Below, piece by piece: positions 5,020-61,518 of a stretch of DNA of 64,000 nt; position 1 is the stretch's first letter, and each line of letters opens with the position of its first letter. A program made the position numbers and the translations under genes. The stretch comes from Eledone cirrhosa (taxonomy: Eukaryota): assembly GCA_964016885.1 (NCBI GenBank), contig OZ024743.1:303056001-303120000 (forward strand), given 5' to 3'. The notes below the pieces were generated by a model. The model ran no database searches. It worked only from the letters and a program-made list of their open reading frames with translations, and had not been told where the DNA came from.

Positions 5020-5179
5020 ATTATTATTATTATTACAGTTGTATTTATCTTGCTTTATATTCATACGAGTTATCACCAAGTCACAACCAGTGACCTCAAG
5101 AGACAACAAGGTCCGCCATGTTCAGGAAAGAACATACATATTCACACATGCATCTTTAGTGTTTAGACTTGTGATGTAC

Positions 5180-8100
5180 TTATATTGACTGAATCTTCCT
5201 TAGTATATGGGCAGTTCCCATTAGTACTATCTTTTGTATTTCCCCTATACGCGGGTTTCCTGGGATTTGCGATATGTAATCATTAGACCCCTTAGGTATC
5301 ATTCCCAGAGCGCCTACAACCACTGGTATTGTTTTAGTTCTCAATTTCCACATTTTTCCAATTTCTATCTCCAGGTCCTTATACTTGCTCAATTTTTCAA
5401 ATGTTTTTATAGATACATTCTTGTCTATTGGAACAGACATATCAATTAGCAGGCATACCCTCTTTTGAAAGTCTTTCAATAATATATCAGGTCTGTTTGC
5501 ATCTATTTTTCGGTCTGTTTGGATGCTAAAGTTCCACAAGATTGAGATGTGATCATTTTCAAGTATGGGAGGTGGTTGATGCTCCCACCAATTCTTTTGA
5601 TGGGGCAGGTCAAAATGCTTACACATTATCCAATGTATGTATTGTGCAGCTCTGTCATGCCTGTTTAGGTATTCGGTTGGAGCTATAGGACTGCACATTG
5701 AAATTATATGGTCAATGGTCTCTGGTTGTTTTTTGCATACACGGCATAATGGGCTGCACCCATTTTTTATTATGTTGGCTTGGTAATTTTTTATTGGCAG
5801 ACACTGATGTTGTGTTGATATAATCAGTCCTACAGTCTCCGATTTCAGTTCAGAAGATGCCAACCACTGATGGGTTAAAGTTTTGTCAATATAAGGATTG
5901 TTAGCTTGCTCTAGGTATTTTCCGTACAGAGGCTTTTCTTGCCATTTCTTAGCCAGTTTCTGTAGCAGTTCTTTCTTTGCAGTTACTTTTACCTGCTTTG
6001 CTTTCTCTGTGTTTTCCATTTCAGCAGTAAATGGGACTTCTGAAATTTGTAGTCCATTACTGTATCTTTTTGCATCTTTTGTAATGGAATATGATCTTTT
6101 GATGCTTTCGTGTTTCAAAACGAGTTTGATCATCCAATCATGTGATTCCCTTAGATATGTAGATAATCCAATTGTTGCAGTTTTCAACGCAATGTCTAAC
6201 TGGATTAACCCACGTCCTCCTTCTTTCCTAGGGAGATATATTCTATCTATATCTGCTTTAGGGTGATGCATTCTGTGCATGGTTAAGAATTTTCGAATTT
6301 TTGTATCGAGCCTACGGATCTCTGTGCTTGACCAGTTGATGACATTGTAACTGTAGGTTACTACTGGTATGGCAAGCGTGTTTATGGCATCGATCCTATT
6401 CCTTGCATTCAATTCAGTTTTTAAGATTGCTCTCACTCTGCGATAACATTCCTTCCTTATCCTTTCCCTCATTGTCGAGTGCTTGATTCCGTCTCCTTCA
6501 CAAACACCTAGATATTTGTAAGTTTTTTCTTGATCAAGTTCTCTTATCACGTTCCCCCGATCAAGATTAATGTCTGAACTCTTCAGCAGCTTTCCTCTGG
6601 TGAACGTTGCTTTGGCGCATTTATCTAGTCCAAACTCCATTTTAATGTCATCACTGAACTGCTTCATAGTGGATAATAGCCCTTGCAATTGTTCATCATT
6701 TTTTGCAAATAGTTTCAGGTCATCCATGTAGAACAGGTGATTAATGGTTTTGTCATAGACTTTATATCCATGTTTTGTTTCATTGAGCATTTTACTTAAT
6801 GGTATAAGTGCGATGCAGAATAAAAGCGGTGATAAAGAGTCACCCTGAAAAATCCACAATTAATATTAACTTCTCCAGCTCCCAGTGATTTTGTTTCACT
6901 ATTCAAAAGGAGTGTCGTTTTCCACGTCTTCATACTGAATGACAATAACCTCCTGACAACGGGGGATACTTTGAAAATCTCTAAACTTTTTTCAATCCAA
7001 CTGTGTGGCAAACTATCAAATGCTTTTTTATAATCTATCCAAGCAATCGATAGATTTTTGTGTCTATTATGACAATCTTCCAGTATCATTTTGTTAACCA
7101 GAAGCTGATCCTTACAGCCATATGTGCCTCGTTAACACCCTTTCTGCTCAATGGGAAATAGGTCATTTGTTATCAGGTGGTCATATGTGTATTCAGTTAG
7201 GACTGATGTTAACATTTTATACATTGTCGTCAAGCAAGTTATCGGTCTGTAATTTTGGGGATTGTTCGTCTCATCATTCTTCGGAAGCAGGAATGTAATG
7301 CCGTTAACTAGCCATGAAGATATCTTTTCTGGCTCCTTAACTATTTCATTGTAAAGTTGGGTTAACAGCTCATGAGACTCTGTGAAGGCATTTATCCAAA
7401 AGTTTTGTATTTTGTCTTTTCCTGGGGATTTCCATTTGCTGGTTTTTCTTAGAGCCAAGCGCAACTGTACAACTGTTATATTTTCCCATGTTTGTTCCTC
7501 AAGGTGAGCTGTATCTTTCATTTGTCTGTCTATCCATGTGGCATGTATGTTATGAACTTTTTCTTCGGCCCAGATCTTTTCCCAGAATTCTTGAACTCCC
7601 TCCTTGGGTGGTATTGATTTAGCAGTTATTGTTGACTTACCAATTTTTCTGTAGAAGTTTCTTTGGTTGTTTTTGAACATATTATTGTCCTTATAGAATC
7701 TAGATCGTTTTTCAAAGCGCCTTATACGAGCAGCTTTGGCCGACATTTTTGCTTGATTATTTCTATCAGCCTGTCTATGTCACATGTTGATTTTATACTG
7801 TACTTTTTTTTCAATTTTCTAAGTTTAGTTTGTTTAACATGTTCACCTACTTTATAGTTTGTTAAAATTTCTATGTCAGATCGGAGAAGGTTTATTTGGC
7901 GATTGATGTTCTCTTACCAAGTAGATTTCTTGTGGGAATTCCTTTCTTTTTTCATCTTCACTCCACATAAGTGAGTGGTGACTTTAGCCGATGCATAATA
8001 GAGATGATTTAAATCAGTAATGTTTAGTTTGTTTGTGATGATAATGTTTTTGGGAATTATGTTAGTCTTGTGTATTATCTTTTGGTTCTGTTTGGAGTTC

Positions 8101-8828
8101 TGGATCTTAGGGAGGGTGTCTCGTTGCCCCATGTCAGATTCTTTCATTTTCATCCATTCGATCATAATTTCATCCTTCAAGTTGGCAAGTTCATTCTCAT
8201 TCATTTCTTTATCATTTACGATCTCATTATTTTCATTTGGAGTTTCATCCTGAGCCTGCAATCCCTCCACTTTTTCAATCCTTTCTTTAATTTTTTCTGT
8301 TGCCAGTGATTCCGCCCCAACCCTGGGATTCGAAGTGTTACAGTTTACCTCGTTTTCACTGACACATGTTTCATTTTCCCTTCGCTGACTTTGTGCTAAT
8401 AGCTTGATCTGATCAATTTCTATATCAGTTAGTAACTTTTTTTTAACAATATTTCTTCGTATATTGGCTAGTTTGTTACTGTCAATATAGCCTCTGTTTT
8501 CGGGATGTTTCTTTTTCCAGTTGATATATGTCTGTTCTGTATTCGATGTTTTTGATGGGTAGTGCATGGCAGTGTAGAAATCCTCAAGGACTTCTTTATT
8601 ATCTTCCCTTAACCATTTTTCTCTCTTTTTCTTTGGATTTCTTGGTGGTGAGCATGGAGGGCCAACAGTAGGAGTATTCCGGTTATCGGAGGTCTCCAGC
8701 TCCGAAGTGATGGGAAGGTTTGAACCATTAGCTGATTTTTCGACCCCAGTCTGGTTCCTCTCTGAGGGACGCGGCCCTTTTTCACCCGGTTTACGGCCGA
8801 TCTGGTATGAGATTTTATCATTAGACAT
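5180..8828 (-). pseudogene. Disrupted RT-RLE polyprotein of Dong family B (N-terminal REKW motif, RT with YMDD, CCHC knuckle, PD-D/ExK endonuclease)
   Basis: ORFs 7914..8828, 7132..7746, 6796..7089 and 5180..6859; motifs DYKKAFDS, QGDSLSP, YMDD, CRVC..ETIDHIISMC, RHD, RPDI..IDMSVP..KLSKY. Confidence 0.93.
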
Positions 8829-8893
8829 TTACTTTATTTTGTCGCGTTTTATCCTTATCCGCCAAGGGGTAATCATTTCGTGTTACCACTTCT

Positions 8894-8983
8894 AGAACGA
8901 GTGTCAACCAAGACTATAGGGGTCGTTCTCCCCTAGAGACACGGCTATTCCCCGCCGGCCGCCATCCCGGTATTTCTTGGTCG
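8894..8983 (-). ncRNA. Candidate pseudoknotted RNA (HDV-like helix order, no P4) in the Dong-B 5' UTR
   Basis: GACCAAG/CUUGGUU, AGAACGA/UCGUUCU and GAC/GUC pairings; compensatory change in the second copy at 60607-60696. Confidence 0.55.
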
Positions 8984-9073
8984 CGGGGTTTTCTTTTTGT
9001 TGTTTTTTTAAATTGTTATTATCATGAGTGGTTCCTTAATGTGAGCATTGCGTGGCTTAAGAATGAAATTATT

Positions 9074-9124
9074 AATAATTGTCTCCACTCCAGGCACAAG
9101 GCCAGCAATCACCCAGTGCATTAC
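9074..9124 (-). mobile_element. 5'-truncated SINE 3' end inserted in the Dong-B leader
   Basis: Reverse complement of the SINE tail (gctggccttgtgcc...acaattatt); absent from the homologous leader at about 60790; flanked by aataat. Confidence 0.8.
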
Positions 9125-9659
9125 AATAATATAACATACTTTTTGTTGTGGTTGGCTGTTATTGTTGTTGGCTATGTCGGTGGTGGTGCCGGGGCTTTTT
9201 ATATTGTTGGTGAGGAAGGGGTGAGCCAGCAGTCCCATAATTGTTGATGTGGCCAGGTCACTAAGTCAATCTATTTATATCTTTTGCTAGCCTCTCCCTT
9301 GTCTAGTGATACTGCCACCTTCCCCTTTCTCTCTCAAGTTAACAGGGGAATAGTGGTGGTAGCATTGAAGGAGTGGTGGCGGCGGGGAGATGTGGGAGAC
9401 AGTAGCGACGGTATCGATACTGAGACAGTGGTGGTGGTGATGTCGATACCGAGGCAGTGGTGATCGTATTACTGTAGCGATGGTGTTGTAGCGGTGGCAG
9501 CAATGAAGGGGTGGTGGTAATGATGGCAGTAGTGAGTGGTGGTGGTGAAATTGCCGTTATCTGGCTGTTGTGTTTAGTGTACACAGAGAGGTGATGGGGT
9601 AGGTGTTGTATCTAGTTTCTGGTGTTGTTTGGCTGTTCTATATAGCGTAGACATAGGAG

Positions 9660-38000: not shown

Positions 38001-39736
38001 GGATGCCTCCTTATGTCTATCAATTTCTTCACCTTCATTTCCCACTGTCTCATTTGCCTGATATACTCCACTCTCCATGTCCAACTTAATTTCTCTGCTC
38101 AGTTCCTCCAGTTCCAACTCGCTTATCCATACATTAGTTCTTATTACCCCAGCCTTACCGGCCAATATTTGTTCACCTAATTTAAATAGATCAATCTCGT
38201 TCCAGGTGTTATGCATCCGTTTCCTGTACCCTTTTTCCATACTCTTCAGGTAACATTTACTGACGGTTCTATTCAATTATATCATCCAGTTGGTTCTTGT
38301 ACGATTCCTTATTCTTCCTCCAACACCAGCAGTATTTGGTTGACAGTCAGGTCCCTGGTGCGGGGCCAGGGATCACTTGCTTGGTGAGAGTCTTTCACAT
38401 GACGTTCCAGTCTCCTTTTCACCGTTATTAGAACTGTTTAGGTTCGACATTTAAACTCTTATATCGAGGATTAGTTCATGTATGGTTACATAAGCAGCGG
38501 TGTTTTTAGCCTGACACCATCATGTTATAGACGAAAATAAATAAATGAACAAAAACATAAAGAAAATAAAAACAAGTTTCATTGTAATGTTTGAATGTCT
38601 GACTTAGTTTTTTCCTTTTTTTGTTTTTCAAGGCCAGTAACATCGGTTACTAGTATTGTTGCTGCTGTTTTTGATTTTAGCTAAGCTAAGCTCATAGTCA
38701 TAGCAACGAGGGAGGTATGGGGTGTTGCATTCAAACCTTTACAAATTTGTTTTTCTTTTAATGTTGCGTTTGTTTTTGTCTGCGTTCTGTTCTGTAATGT
38801 TTCGACTTGTTACTTATCTTGCCTTTCATCCTTACGGGGTCGATAAAATAAAGTACCAGTAATGTACTGGGTAATTGCTGGCCTTGTGCCAAAAAGTAGA
38901 AACAATTATTATGTGAGTTCAAATCTCGTCGAGGTTAACTTTGCCTTTCATCCTTACGGGGTCGATAAACTATAGTACCGGTAACACACTGAGTAATTGC
39001 TGGCCTTGTGCCTAAAGTAGAAACAATTATGTAAGCGGTCGAAAATTAAAGTACCAGTAATGTACTGGGTGATTGCTGGCCTTGTGCTAAAAGTAGAAAC
39101 AATTATTATGCAAGTTGACATCGTTTAAACTAAACATTTTGAGAGAGCTTAGAGAAACAACGACAATAATTATTATTATTATGGTGTTGTTGTTGGCTAT
39201 ATTGTTGGCTATATTAGTGCGACTGTTGTCAATGTTGGGATGTTCAACATTTTCTTTTGACCAGGTTATTAAATCAGTCTATTTATATATGTTGGTAGCT
39301 TCCTCGTTTATAGTCTTGTGTACTACTAACTTCCCTCTCTTAACAGAAGGTAGTGAGGGAATAGCGGTGGTAGCAATGATGGAGTGGTGACGGTGGTGAT
39401 GGGGTAGTGGTATTGTAGTGATTGTTGGTTTGTCTCTAGCTAAAGTTTGTGGTAGTGGTGGTTGTGGTGGGGTGTTGGTGGTTAACGTATTTGGCTGTTG
39501 TTTTCTTCCATTTGTGACCAGTAGTAACCATTTTCCTTGTTTAATATAACATTTCTAATACAAAATTAAATATTTTAGCCTTATGTCACGGTGTAGGTTC
39601 TCACTTCCTGAGAGTAAAGACTGGTACCTTATGTCCTATTTGTAACAGAAATTACAATTGTTTTAAATATGTAAAAAATCAAAGACTCACCGGAGCGATT
39701 CCATAACACTCTATCCACCTGGTGCATAATCTTCCC
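35009..39736 (-). mobile_element. R4/Dong-like family A element, apparently full length but decayed; ORF about 35110-38450, leader about 38450-39736
   Basis: Ordered ORF fragments GYRKRMH..W, PDEQKGC, FQGDSLS, FMDD, RHD and HNRPDL; TTA tracts at both ends. Confidence 0.9.
38818..39108 (+). mobile_element. Three head-to-tail 5'-truncated SINE copies inside the Dong-A leader
   Basis: Three successive gctggccttgtgc..aaagtagaaacaattat tails ending at about 38910, 39030 and 39108. Confidence 0.88.
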
Positions 39737-42419: not shown

Positions 42420-42439
42420 TATTATTATTATTATTATTA

Positions 42440-44786
42440 CAGTTGCATTTATCTTGCTTTATGTTCATACGAGTTATCACCAAGTCACAACCAGTGACCT
42501 CAAGAGACAACAAGGTCCGCCATGTTCAAGAAAGAACATACATATTCACACATGCATCTTTAGTGTTTAGACTTGTGATGTACTTATATTGACAGAATCT
42601 TCCTTAGTATATGGGCAGTTCCCATTAGTACTATCTTTTGTATTTCTCCTATACGCGGGTTTCCTGGGATTTGCGATATGTAATCATTAGACCCCTTAGG
42701 TATCATTCCCAGAGCGCCTACAACCACTGGTATTGTTTTAGTTCTCAATTTCCACATTTTTCCAATTTCTATCTCCAGGTCCTTATACTTGCTCAATTTT
42801 TCAAATGTTTTTATAGATACATTCTTGTCTATTGGAACAGACATATCAATTAGCAGGCATACCCTCTTTTGAAAGTATTTCAATAATATATCAGGTCTGT
42901 TTGCATCTATTTTTCGGTCTGTTTGGATGCTAAAGTTCCACAAGATTGAGATGTGATCTTTTTCAAGTATGGGAGGTGGTTGATGCTCCCACCAATTCTT
43001 TTGATGGGGCAGGTCAAAATGCTTACACATTATCCAATGTATGTATTGTGCAGCTCTGTCATGCCTGTTTAGGTATTCGGTTGGAGCTATAGGACTGCAC
43101 ATTGAAATTATATGGTCAATGGTCTCTGGTTGTTTTTTGCATACACGGCATAATGGGCTGCACCCATTTTTTATTATGTTGGCTTGGTAATTTTTTGTTG
43201 GCAGACACTGATCTTGTGCCGATATAATCAGTCCTTCAGTCTCCGATTTCAGTCCAGAGGATGCCAACCACTGATGGGTTAAAGTTTTGTCAACATCAGG
43301 ATTGTTAGCTCGCTCTGGGTATTTTCCATACAGAGGCTTTTCTTGCCATTTCTTAGCCAGTTTCTGTAGCAGTTCTTTCTTTGCAGTTACTTTTACCTGC
43401 TTTGCTTTTTCTGTGTTTTCCATTTCAGCAGTAAATGGGACTTCTGAAACTTGTAGTCCATTACTGTATCTTTGTGCATCTTTTGTAATGGAATATGATC
43501 TTTTGATGCTTTCGTGTTTCAAAACGAGTTTGATCATCCAATCATGTGATTCCCTTAGATATGTAGATAATCCAATCGTTGCAATTTTCAACACAATGTC
43601 TAACTGGATTAACCCACGTCCTCCTTCTTTCCTAGGGAGATATATTCTATCTATATCTGCTTTAGGGTGATGCATTCTGTGCATGGTTAAGAATTTTCTC
43701 ATTTTTGTATCGAGCCTACGGATCTCTGTGCTTGACCAGTTGATGACATTGTAACTGTAGGTTACTACTTTATGGCAAGCGTGTTTATGGCATCGATCCT
43801 ATTCCTTGCATTCAATTCCGTTTTTAAGATTGCTCTCACTCTGCGGTAACATTCCTTCCTTATCCGTTCCCTCATTGTCGAGTGCTTGATTCCGTCTCCT
43901 TCACAAACACCTAGATATTTGTAAGTTTTTTCTTGATCAAGTTTTCTTATCACGTTCCCCCGATCAAGATTAATGTCTGAACTCTTCAGCAGCTTTCCTC
44001 TGGTGAACGTTGCTTTGGCGCATTTATCTTGTCCAAACTCCATTTTAATGTCATCACTGAACTGCTTCAGAGTGGATAATAGCCCTTGCAATTGTTCATC
44101 ATGTTTTGCAAATAGTTTCAGGTCATCCATGTAGAACAGGTGATTAATGGTTTTGTCATAGACTTTATATCCATGCTTTGTTTCATTGAGCATTTTGTTT
44201 CATTGAGCATTTTGTTTCATTTTGTTTCATTGAGCATTTTACTTAATCGTATAAGTGCGATGCAGAATAAAAGCGGTGATAAAGAGTCACCCTGAAAAAT
44301 TCCACACTTAATATTAACTTCTCCAGCCTCCAGTGAGTTTGTGTCACTATTCAAAAGGAGTGTCGTTTTCCATGTCTTCATACTGAATGACAAAAACCTC
44401 CTGACAACGGGGGATACTTTGAAAATCTCTAAACATTTTTCAATCCAACTGTGTGGTAAACTATCAAATGCCTTTTTATAATCCATCCAAGCAATCGATA
44501 GATTTTTGTGTCTATTATGACAATCTTCCAGTATCATTTTGTTAACCAGAAGCTGATCCATACAGCCATATGAGCCTCGTTTATAACCCTTTTCTTTTTT
44601 GAATACAAAATATATAATACAAAATTGAATATTTGAGCGATATAACAATATAATATGTATCCGAAATTTTATGCGACTTGATTCGGTGGTTTATGCAACA
44701 TTTCACAATTGATTTAAATATGTTAAAAATCAAAAACTTACGGGAACGATTTCATGACCTTCTACCACCTCGTGCGTCTTCTTCCG
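42440..44786 (-). mobile_element. R4/Dong-like family B, internally deleted copy retaining the 5'-terminal 200 bp
   Basis: 42440-44590 matches 5036-7140; 44590-44650 matches the leader end at 61450-61518. Confidence 0.9.
44177..44240. repeat. Tandem amplification of a 17-bp unit (tttgtttcattgagcat) inside the RT
   Basis: Three full units and one partial unit here; single unit in the other Dong-B copies. Confidence 0.9.
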
Positions 44787-59700: not shown

Positions 59701-61518
59701 CCGATGCATAATAGAGGTGATTTAGATCAGTAATCTTTAGTTTGTTTGTGATGAAAATGTTTTTGAGAATTATGTTAGTCTTGTGTATTATCTTTTGGTT
59801 CTGTTTGGAGTTCTGGATCTTAGGGAGAGTGTCTCGTTCCCTCATGTCAGATTCTTTCATTTTCATCCATTCGATCATAATTTCATCATTCAAGATGGCA
59901 AGTTCATTCTCATTCATTTCTTTATCATTTATGATCTCATTGTTTTCATTTTGATTTTCTTCTTGAGCATGCACTCCCTCCACTTTTTCAATCATTTCTT
60001 TAATTTGTTCTGCTGTCAGTGATTCCGCCCCCACCCTGTGATACGAAGTGTTACAATTTACCTCGTTTTCACTGACACATGTTTCATTTTCCCTTCGCAG
60101 ACTTTGTGCTAATAGCTTGATCTGATCAATTTCTATATCAGTTAGTAACTTTTTTTTAACAATATTTCTTCGTATATTGGCTAGTTTGTTACTGTCAATA
60201 TAGCCTCTGTTTTCGGGATGTTTCTTTTTCCAGTGGATATATGTCTGTTCTGCATTCGATCAATTTGATGGGTAGTACATAGTAGTGTAGAAAACCTCAA
60301 GGACTTCTTTATTGTCTTTTCTTGACCATTTTTTTCTCTTTTTCTTTGGATTTCTTAGTGGTGCGCATTGAGGGCCAACAGTAGGAGTATTCCGGTTATG
60401 GGAGGTATCCAGCTGCGAAGTGATGGGAAGGTTTGAACCATTAGCTGATCTTTCACCCCCAGTCTGGTCCCTCTCTGAGGGACGCGGCCGTGTTTGACCC
60501 GGGTGACGGCCGATCCGGTATCACATTTTATCATTTGACATTTACTTTATTTTGTTGCATTTTATCCTTAACCGCCAAGTTGTAATCATTTCGTGTTACC
60601 ACTTCTAGGACGAGTGTCAACCAAGACTAGAGGGGTCGTCCTCCCCTAGAGACATGGCTATTCCCCGGCAGCCGCCATCCCGGTATTTCTTGGTCACGGG
60701 GTTTTCTTTTTTGTTGTTTTTTATATTGTTAATATCATGAGTGGTTCCTTAATGTGAACATTGCGTGGCTTAAGAATGAAATTATTATTAATAATATAAT
60801 ATACTTTTTTGCTGAAGTTGCCTGTTATTGTTGTTGGCTATGTTGGTGATGATGCTGGGGCTTTTTCTATTGTTGGTGGGGAAAGGGTGAGTCAGCAGTG
60901 CCATAGTCGTTGACGTTTGACCGAGTCACTAAGTCAGTCTATTTATATATTTGGCTAGCCTCTCCCTTGTCTAGTGATACTGCCACCTTCCCCTTTCTTA
61001 AGTTAACAGAAGGTAGTGTGGGAATAGTGGTGGTAGCAATGTAGGAGTGGTGACGGCGGTGATAGGATAGTGGCAGCAATGATTGAGTGGTGGCGGTGGT
61101 GACTATAGTTATGGCGTTGTCGTTACTGAGTTCTGTTGAATAGACTGTAGTAGGATGCGTTTGTTTGATCTCTATATCTATGTGATTTGTCGCGTATGTT
61201 GATATTGGTTGACATATTTCCTTAATATTTGAATTAAACATTTTGAGAACACTTGATATACAATGATATTAATTATTATTATTATTATGCTGGCATTGGT
61301 TGTGGTGGTGGTGAGATTGTCGTTATCTGGCTGTTGTATTTAGTGTACACAGAGGGGTGATGGGATAGGTAGTGTATCGAGGCTGTTCTGGTGGTGAAAT
61401 TGCTGTTATTTGGCTGTTCTATATAGTGTAAACAGAGGGGGTTTTCTTCCATTTATAACCATTTTCTGTTTTGAATATGAAATTCATAATACAAATTGAA
61501 CATTTCCGCGATATAACA
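56756..61518 (-). mobile_element. R4/Dong-like family B, near full length, older and decayed (ORF about 56900-60541)
   Basis: Collinear with 5036-9650 throughout; (ATT)n at 56716-56755. Confidence 0.93.
60607..60696 (-). ncRNA. Second copy of the candidate Dong-B leader pseudoknot
   Basis: AGGACGA/UCGUCCU replaces AGAACGA/UCGUUCU. Confidence 0.55.

Follow-up and report, generated by a model that had tools for sequence, protein, structure and literature searches.

Self-cleaving RNAs of LINEs can lie at an element's 5′ end. HDV-like and twister ribozymes in this position have been reported to support translation (PMC3774820, PMC6765202, PMC8501958), and the Dong element of Bombyx has an HDV-like ribozyme reported to cleave at its 5′ end (PMC3774820). 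R2 ribozymes that lack P4 or are only weakly active are described (PMC3774820). Both the minimal HDV-like ribozymes and the silkmoth R2 ribozyme are reported to keep a C-N-A junction (PMC10879173, PMC3774820). In the reported series covering all 16 versions of the HDV loop pair, only U/G, C/A, U/U, G/G and U/A cleaved, U/U doing so 290-fold more slowly (PMC3386971). A role other than cleavage has also been reported, since the R2 protein binds the 5′ pseudoknot of its RNA independently of cleavage (PMC6765202).

Here, we analysed a 64,000-nucleotide stretch of the Eledone cirrhosa genome (the window), in which an earlier note had described a covarying HDV-like pseudoknot in the 5′ UTR of a Dong-type LINE. 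Our analysis upholds a selected RNA structure in this 5′ UTR, through covariation of P2 across 117 classed loci. Membership of the HDV-like family was not supported, as the locus has no loop G, no P1.1 and no C-N-A junction. According to the structure that we predict, a larger and newly recognised fold extends over 8894-8990, and the motif makes up its 3′ half. We found no published description of this fold in the literature searched, the scope of which did not extend to Ruminski 2011, Repbase or the supplementary figure S2 on Bombyx Dong (PMC3774820).

The host element and its copies

A minus-strand LINE spans positions 5033-9657 of the window, and the motif at 8894-8983 falls within its 5′ UTR (Table 1). 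An RT domain (RVT_1) is found in the minus-strand ORF that begins at 8828. The single ORF, its RT, two further motifs which we take to be CCHC and restriction-like endonuclease motifs, and the insertion of this Dong family in TAA repeats place the element in the R4/Dong clade on sequence grounds, the RT tree having contained no named Dong protein. Compared with L124, a full-length copy, the window copy shows 97.4% identity. Its own ORF is disrupted, and an intact ORF of 1216 aa is retained in many copies elsewhere in the genome. The first 22 nt of the motif have 1,130 exact matches in the 3.0 Gb of this genome. The window itself is crowded with nested LINE pieces and TAA repeats. At 44580-44785 and 42437-44592 (minus strand), a copy with an internal deletion has the initial 226 nt of its leader fused to mid-ORF sequence. 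In another region (G000:C2:353612479-353642081), seven motif copies spaced 4.9 kb apart form a tandem array of whole elements.

Table 1. Features of the Dong element and its predicted 5′ UTR structures, in window coordinates
Feature	Position	Strand	Remarks
Dong/R4 ORF and 3′ end	5033..8828	-	AUG 8826-8828; fragmented in the window copy; RVT_1
Small H-type pseudoknot (predicted)	8844..8867	-	8863-8867 with 8853-8857; loop 8860-8862 with 8844-8846
Predicted hairpin	8864..8891	-	just downstream of the fold; holds the uORF AUG 8874-8876
Whole predicted fold, about 97 nt	8894..8990	-	homologous to the 5′-terminal L167 sequence; score 50, 0/1000 shuffles
Junction and P2 3′ strand	8894..8905	-	junction 8899-8905, no C-N-A signature; P2′ 8894-8900, covarying base 8896
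P2 5′ strand, P3 and 7-nt loop	8912..8929	-	P2 5′ strand 8923-8929, covarying base 8927; loop 8915-8921
Hairpin Pa and P0 3′ strand (8950-8954)	8941..8970	-	Pa 8967-8970 with 8955-8958; 8-nt loop can pair with 8941-8947
P1 5′ strand	8975..8982	-	pairs with 8906-8913; G of the earlier note at 8982
Old 5′ boundary: AA 8989-8990, then P0 5′ strand 8984-8988	8984..8990	-	P0 with 8950-8954; C-G to A-U in L167; 19 copies start here
Retained part of the leader of about 1 kb	8991..9657	-	last 40 nt A-rich, resembling a decayed TAA target
Leader start before a distant Dong ORF	39654..39736	-	same leader start; ORF 29-36% aa identity
Second copy (subfamily B), fold through AUG	60539..60703	-	Pa and downstream hairpin weaker through private changes

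The motif and its HDV-like features

All strands of the motif could be confirmed from the letters of the window where the earlier note had put them, on the minus strand, and the spacing of about 65 nt to the start codon is also correct, P2′ ending 65 nt before the AUG of the ORF. P2 (8923-8929 with 8894-8900) forms seven Watson-Crick pairs if two bases are borrowed from P3 (8922-8924 with 8912-8914). A pattern for the motif has two matches in the window and none in 100 shuffles. The second of these copies, at 60607-60696, shows the A-U to G-C change on both strands of P2 that had been described for it. Its loop is that of the family majority; the loop of the window copy is not typical, as the A at 8917 is rare (2 of 30 loci) and nearly all loci have a C there. 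The nested helix order of HDV with a G-U first pair, also claimed previously, was recovered by a descriptor with a P1 of 6-7 bp that starts at the G. When the region is shuffled with its dinucleotides preserved, 11 of 1000 sequences match as well; when the YYCNC loop is included, a single shuffle in 1000 does so. The nested folding energy is ordinary (z -1.14 and -0.66).

In HDV-like ribozymes, P1.1 is formed by two G after P1′ that pair with the CC of the loop. Here, a single G (8905) follows P1′ and the GG is not present. The signature of a catalytic C at the first position of J4/2 with an A two bases on does not occur in the junction either, so that L3 and J4/2 are non-canonical, as had been remarked: the junction has no C-N-A, and the family-majority loop pair would be C/U instead of the trans U-G. 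This counts against the HDV reading, because C/U is one of the combinations that did not cleave when the HDV pair was mutated (PMC3386971). The pair is U/U in L167, one of the two relatives described below. Searching the same genome with a pattern for the canonical loop G gave two matches, one a decayed copy and the other unrelated. The strict HDV descriptor has no match in L167 or in the other relative, L166. In both, 2-4 nt separate P1′ and P3′, and the start of the element is found 8-9 nt above the G.

The locus thus resembles the HDV-like LINE ribozymes in its setting (the 5′ UTR of an RLE-type LINE), the P1-P2-P3-L3 nesting, the G-U first pair, the YCC-C start of the loop and a dispensable P4. 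Besides the missing catalytic elements, it differs from them by an additional 5′ helix above the G, by its position about 1 kb inside the element and by copies that do not start at the G. With the minimal HDV-like or theta ribozymes, as reported, it has in common the lack of P4 and a short junction after P1′ (PMC10879173). Those ribozymes are, however, reported to require the catalytic C first in J4/2, where the present junction is otherwise, and their setting is a phage tRNA instead of a LINE (PMC10879173).

Rfam covariance models returned nothing near the gathering score; the best ribozyme match, to drz-agam-1 (E 4.6), was in L166 and lay outside the motif. This is a weak test, because the HDV-like-looking 5′ end of another Dong element, L186, also gave nothing. 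The 5′ ends at L186:4580-4670 and L235:403-490 are HDV-like by eye, with an A replacing the loop G; neither Rfam nor the strict descriptor detected them. Other candidates were rejected. At 38400-38600 of the window, a second Dong family contains the loop-like word UCCUCG, but it has no P3 and a single match genome-wide. The core motifs of hairpin, pistol and hatchet ribozymes were missing by eye.

Covariation in P2

Base pair 8927/8896 could be classed in 117 of 120 motif-anchored loci, a sample enriched for subfamily B: 71 have A-U, 41 G-C, four G-U and one C-C. When 60 copies of subfamily A were compared with 35 of subfamily B from 100 nt above G 8982 to the AUG (about 250 nt), these two positions were the sole fixed substitutions. 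A Watson-Crick helix of 7 bp holds only 14 of the 12,246 position pairs in that interval, and 14 of the 4,095 within the motif. Half-changed forms are scarce genome-wide (18 G-U and 11 A-C). They occur on both subfamily backgrounds, for which reason we discarded a G-U lineage as the evolutionary intermediate, and G-U copies are not amplified (18 versus 11, p 0.26). Since the fixed changes hit both partners of one pair and half-changed copies are rare, P2 is likely to be under selection, as far as sequence comparison can tell. The caution that one compensatory pair is thin evidence was nevertheless justified: the double change is real, yet it is a single event. Moreover, this pair cannot separate the HDV fold from an alternative hairpin of the UAGGGG/CCCCUA type, because P2 is common to both. 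In the first 800 nt of the ORF, the two subfamilies differ by eight fixed substitutions.

Older subfamilies were sought in the same genome in several ways. A loose core pattern gave only point variants among the first 100 of 1,135 matches, and 20 copies absent from the first list consisted of 19 point mutants and one truncated copy, with no diverged subfamily. A degenerate pattern for the N-terminal part of the protein had no match, a pattern with excluded bases had eight, all of them truncations or deletions, and the 150 copies recovered by searching with the N-terminal part of the protein were all near-identical. The L167 UTR used as a DNA query had no match. In contigs from eight sequencing runs, the motif was present in four organisms, three of which also have sequence above the old boundary; it is near-identical in all four and so provides no new covariation. 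In one run (X16, organism L), contigs of a depth of about 9,000 cover window positions 8844-8911 only, which hints at a high-copy relative with P2′ and the downstream hairpin and with a different sequence further up.

A larger fold shared with two relatives

A metagenome scan returned 80 Dong-like loci. Among those that include a 5′ end, L167 and L166 are the closest; over their best segments, aa identity is 58% for L167 (the RT-endonuclease part) and 46% for L166. L167 starts, directly behind TAA repeats, with AA followed by a near-gapless homologue of 8988-8890. In this alignment 64 of 108 columns are identical, and none of 1000 shuffles is as good; the neighbouring N-terminal half of the protein is 39% identical. 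L166 also begins at a TAA junction. Its sequence has no similarity to the window family (751 of 1000 shuffles as good) and a weak one to L167 (17 of 1000), and despite this dissimilarity it can form the same helix series. The earlier note had thus recognised the 3′ half of the predicted fold and missed both the 5′ half, with its helix at 8984-8988, and a small pseudoknot beside the AUG.

The predicted order is P0, the 5′ strand of P1, Pa with a loop pairing just after P0′, P2, a hairpin, P1′ and P2′. The partner of P1 comes in the same order in both relatives (8 bp in L166, 6 bp in L167), the first two bases of P3 can also extend P2 in them as in the window family, and a 5-nt core of the P3 hairpin loop is common to all three. 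A joint architecture descriptor matches the window family, L167 and L166, and 0-1 of 1000 shuffles of each; these counts are too low, because the descriptor was fitted to the same three sequences. It matches none of 15 other Dong 5′ ends. Between the window family and L167, P0, Pa and the loop pairing have one double change each, for a borderline total (reached in 25-144 of 1000 null runs). P1, P2 and P3 are not shared stems in the gapless register with L167 and need small shifts. Competing alternative helices are present, and the independent sequences with the fold number only three. Motif-bearing elements group in the RT tree built without L167 (99/99); when L167 is included it joins L169 and L166, and the branch of the window element has no resolved position. 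No complete catalytic motif of a known class was found in the window family, L166 or L167, so that only position argues for a ribozyme past.

Other Dong relatives begin with tRNA-like heads or other folds instead. Heads that are tRNA-like by eye occur in L172, L173, L192, L203, L243 and L244; their sequences suggest Pol III promoters, and exchange of 5′ modules appears to be frequent among these elements and their clade. Five other elements (L171:49-125, L185:1-70, L189:53-125, L190:647-720 and L191:74-150) have in common another fold, strongly conserved and situated immediately behind the TAA junction; its 5′ strand can pair either with the loop of a hairpin or with two strands further downstream. 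This fold, which has no Rfam match, is another candidate for a 5′-end ribozyme.

The leader and the 5′ ends of copies

The motif is internal, as had been stated: 30 full-length copies begin 927-1,090 nt upstream of it. The leader had been put at a minimum of 650 nt, whereas its true length is about 1 kb, the window copy being 5′-truncated near 9657. At least 800 nt of leader are present in 50 of 76 copies. A tRNA-derived leader was rejected (ARAGORN, none of four sources). A leader piece of the window Dong family also precedes a distant Dong ORF at 39258-39428 (minus strand), in addition to the leader start listed in Table 1.

Starts of copies do not pile up at the G (8982) for which such a test had been suggested, with none among 30 unselected copies and two among about 1,130 genome-wide. 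Nineteen distinct copies (from 30 rows, 11 of these being listed twice) start behind TAA repeats 8-12 nt above this G, at the old boundary, 14 of them with an L167-type junction. Among the controls, a site 136 nt below the G that shares the A-run context has two starts (19 versus 2, p 0.0002), two other sites have one and four, the G has two and the sequence just below the motif four. Starts at the old boundary are 2-10 times those of controls. However, an A-run 20-26 nt above the G has seven junctions from about 63% of the copies (corrected 19 versus 7, p 0.31), and microhomology to TAA can therefore explain much of the excess. The 13 old-boundary copies that were fetched span several sublineages, but several short ones have upstream element tails in common and may not be independent. 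Residual use of the old 5′ boundary is suggested by these data, which are not a proof of it.

Structures beside the start codon

The predicted small pseudoknot lies 15 nt before the AUG and is common to four lineages, the window family, L166, L167 and L169. Pairing is possible in 39 of 40 cells, compared with 22-43% of cells in slid controls. Two of its eight pairs show a double change, which 39 of 500 shuffles reach as well. A pattern of the type found in the relatives has no match in the same genome or in viral contigs. Because the pseudoknot keeps a fixed place beside the AUG whatever the length of the UTR, we consider this modelled structure a better candidate for a translation signal than the larger fold. 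A uORF of 15 codons (8829-8876, minus strand) is in frame and has its stop directly before the main AUG. Coupling through this uORF was rejected as a function, as its AUG is lost in a copy with an intact ORF (L122) and in organism G.

Discussion

The explanation that we favour, with about an even chance of being correct as a whole, is that the fold is an ancestral 5′-end module, likely a former ribozyme, which has become silent for the most part and has likely been retained as a structural signal where translation of the single ORF starts. That 8990 is a former 5′ end is likely, because the same architecture stands directly behind TAA target repeats in L167 and L166. An ancestor starting at this position would probably have landed in a TAA tract behind the leader of another element, the fusion becoming a new master. 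Such a capture of the leader is consistent with the leader start common to a distant Dong family and with the 40 nt above the fold that resemble decayed TAA. Before this event, the module may rather well have cut itself out of read-through transcripts. Afterwards, cutting would have had to be damped to keep the leader, the fold and the pseudoknot at 8844-8867 now serving the start of translation or the binding of a protein; we regard the arguments for and against this last step as balanced. The R2 5′ pseudoknot and the IRES-like LINE ribozymes offer a parallel, being described as structured RNAs just upstream of a single LINE ORF with a plausible non-cleaving role (PMC6765202). This likeness is one of position and possible role.

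Alternatively, the fold could be a working, slow ribozyme of a new architecture that cuts 5′ of the AA at 8989-8990 in the manner of twister, in a few percent of transcripts here. It would free elements of the L166 or L167 type from read-through RNA and, in the window family, yield short templates or cap-free mRNA. Like the reported twister and T-variant ribozymes of Schistosoma Perere-3, the fold has AA before a helix of 4-5 bp at the 5′ junction of the element (PMC8501958, PMC6154101). Its inner hairpin of 4 bp carries an 8-nt loop able to pair immediately behind the outer helix, a pairing that is in the twister register in L167, where G-A follows the helix. Compared by eye with Table 1 of PMC8501958, the order N-A-A, P2, P4, 8-nt L4 and T1 fits the window family and L167 (T1 pairing three of four and four of four, respectively) and fits L166 poorly. 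The copies that start at the old boundary, with their L167-type junctions and several sublineages, are in line with such cutting, and internal ribozymes of RNA viruses are reported to cleave a share of the RNA and to initiate translation (PMC13725137). On the other hand, 131-175 of 1000 shuffled sequences also yield the 5′ domain when it is taken by itself, the T2 pseudoknot (GC/GC) is absent in the window family, L167 and L166, and the linker has 0-1 nt instead of the 5 nt reported for twister. The general-base G after P2′, present in L167, is replaced by A in the window family. In place of P3 there is a long-range helix into a second domain, and the host is an RLE instead of an APE element. 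Given also the A-run control, the common tails of some short copies and the lack of Rfam ribozyme matches, we consider a working ribozyme of this kind unlikely, though not negligible. In its most specific form, a twister-like 5′ module would be interlocked by the long-range helix with an HDV-like 3′ module. Elements of a Dong subclade would have this ribozyme as their 5′ end and it would cut N^AA, being buried here and tuned down so that few transcripts are cut for cap-free translation; this seems slightly less probable again.

It is also conceivable that the module was never catalytic, having been from the start a protein-binding or IRES-like fold, comparable to the R2 pseudoknot, which came to lie inside when the leader was added and kept the same job. 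The absence of a catalytic signature in the three relatives, a structure kept although the module is no longer terminal and the cleavage-independent binding reported for the R2 protein (PMC6765202) would all fit. But L166 and L167, which have neither a tRNA-like head nor a leader before the fold, would then need a way to make their 5′ end, and the exchange of the module for tRNA-like heads in other Dong relatives suggests a 5′-end job. We therefore find a history free of catalysis rather improbable.

A minimal HDV-like ribozyme without P4, cutting slowly before G 8982, is very unlikely. The helix order and the G-U first pair do fit, as do five of the seven bases in the loop, an A-U to G-C change in P3 is seen in L167 (with a shift of one base), and both P4-less or weak R2 ribozymes and an HDV-like ribozyme of Bombyx Dong are reported (PMC3774820). 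Against this stand the C/U loop pair of an inactive class, the absence of the P1.1 GG and of the C-N-A junction, a canonical loop G confined to one decayed copy, the two copies starting at the G and the failure of the strict descriptor in L166 and L167, with their displaced P1′ and their starts above the G. Least probable of all is a neutral relic kept by descent only, with helices and a double change due to chance: the folding z-scores near zero, the single covariation event, the borderline two-sequence statistics and the few differences between subfamilies anywhere would agree with it, but the two fixed changes fall on bases that pair with each other (true of about 0.1-0.3% of position pairs) and the module is better conserved in L167 than the neighbouring half of the protein.

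Returning to the ancestral 5′-end module, the wider question is how LINEs without a cap-bearing promoter form their 5′ ends and start translation. The same module is terminal in the relatives and internal here, and the roles in cleavage and in translation are thus separable. If the RNA of L166 or L167 self-cleaves, it would represent a new ribozyme design, matching no Rfam class. If it does not, the fold and the small pseudoknot would be candidates for a translation or protein-loading signal of Dong elements.
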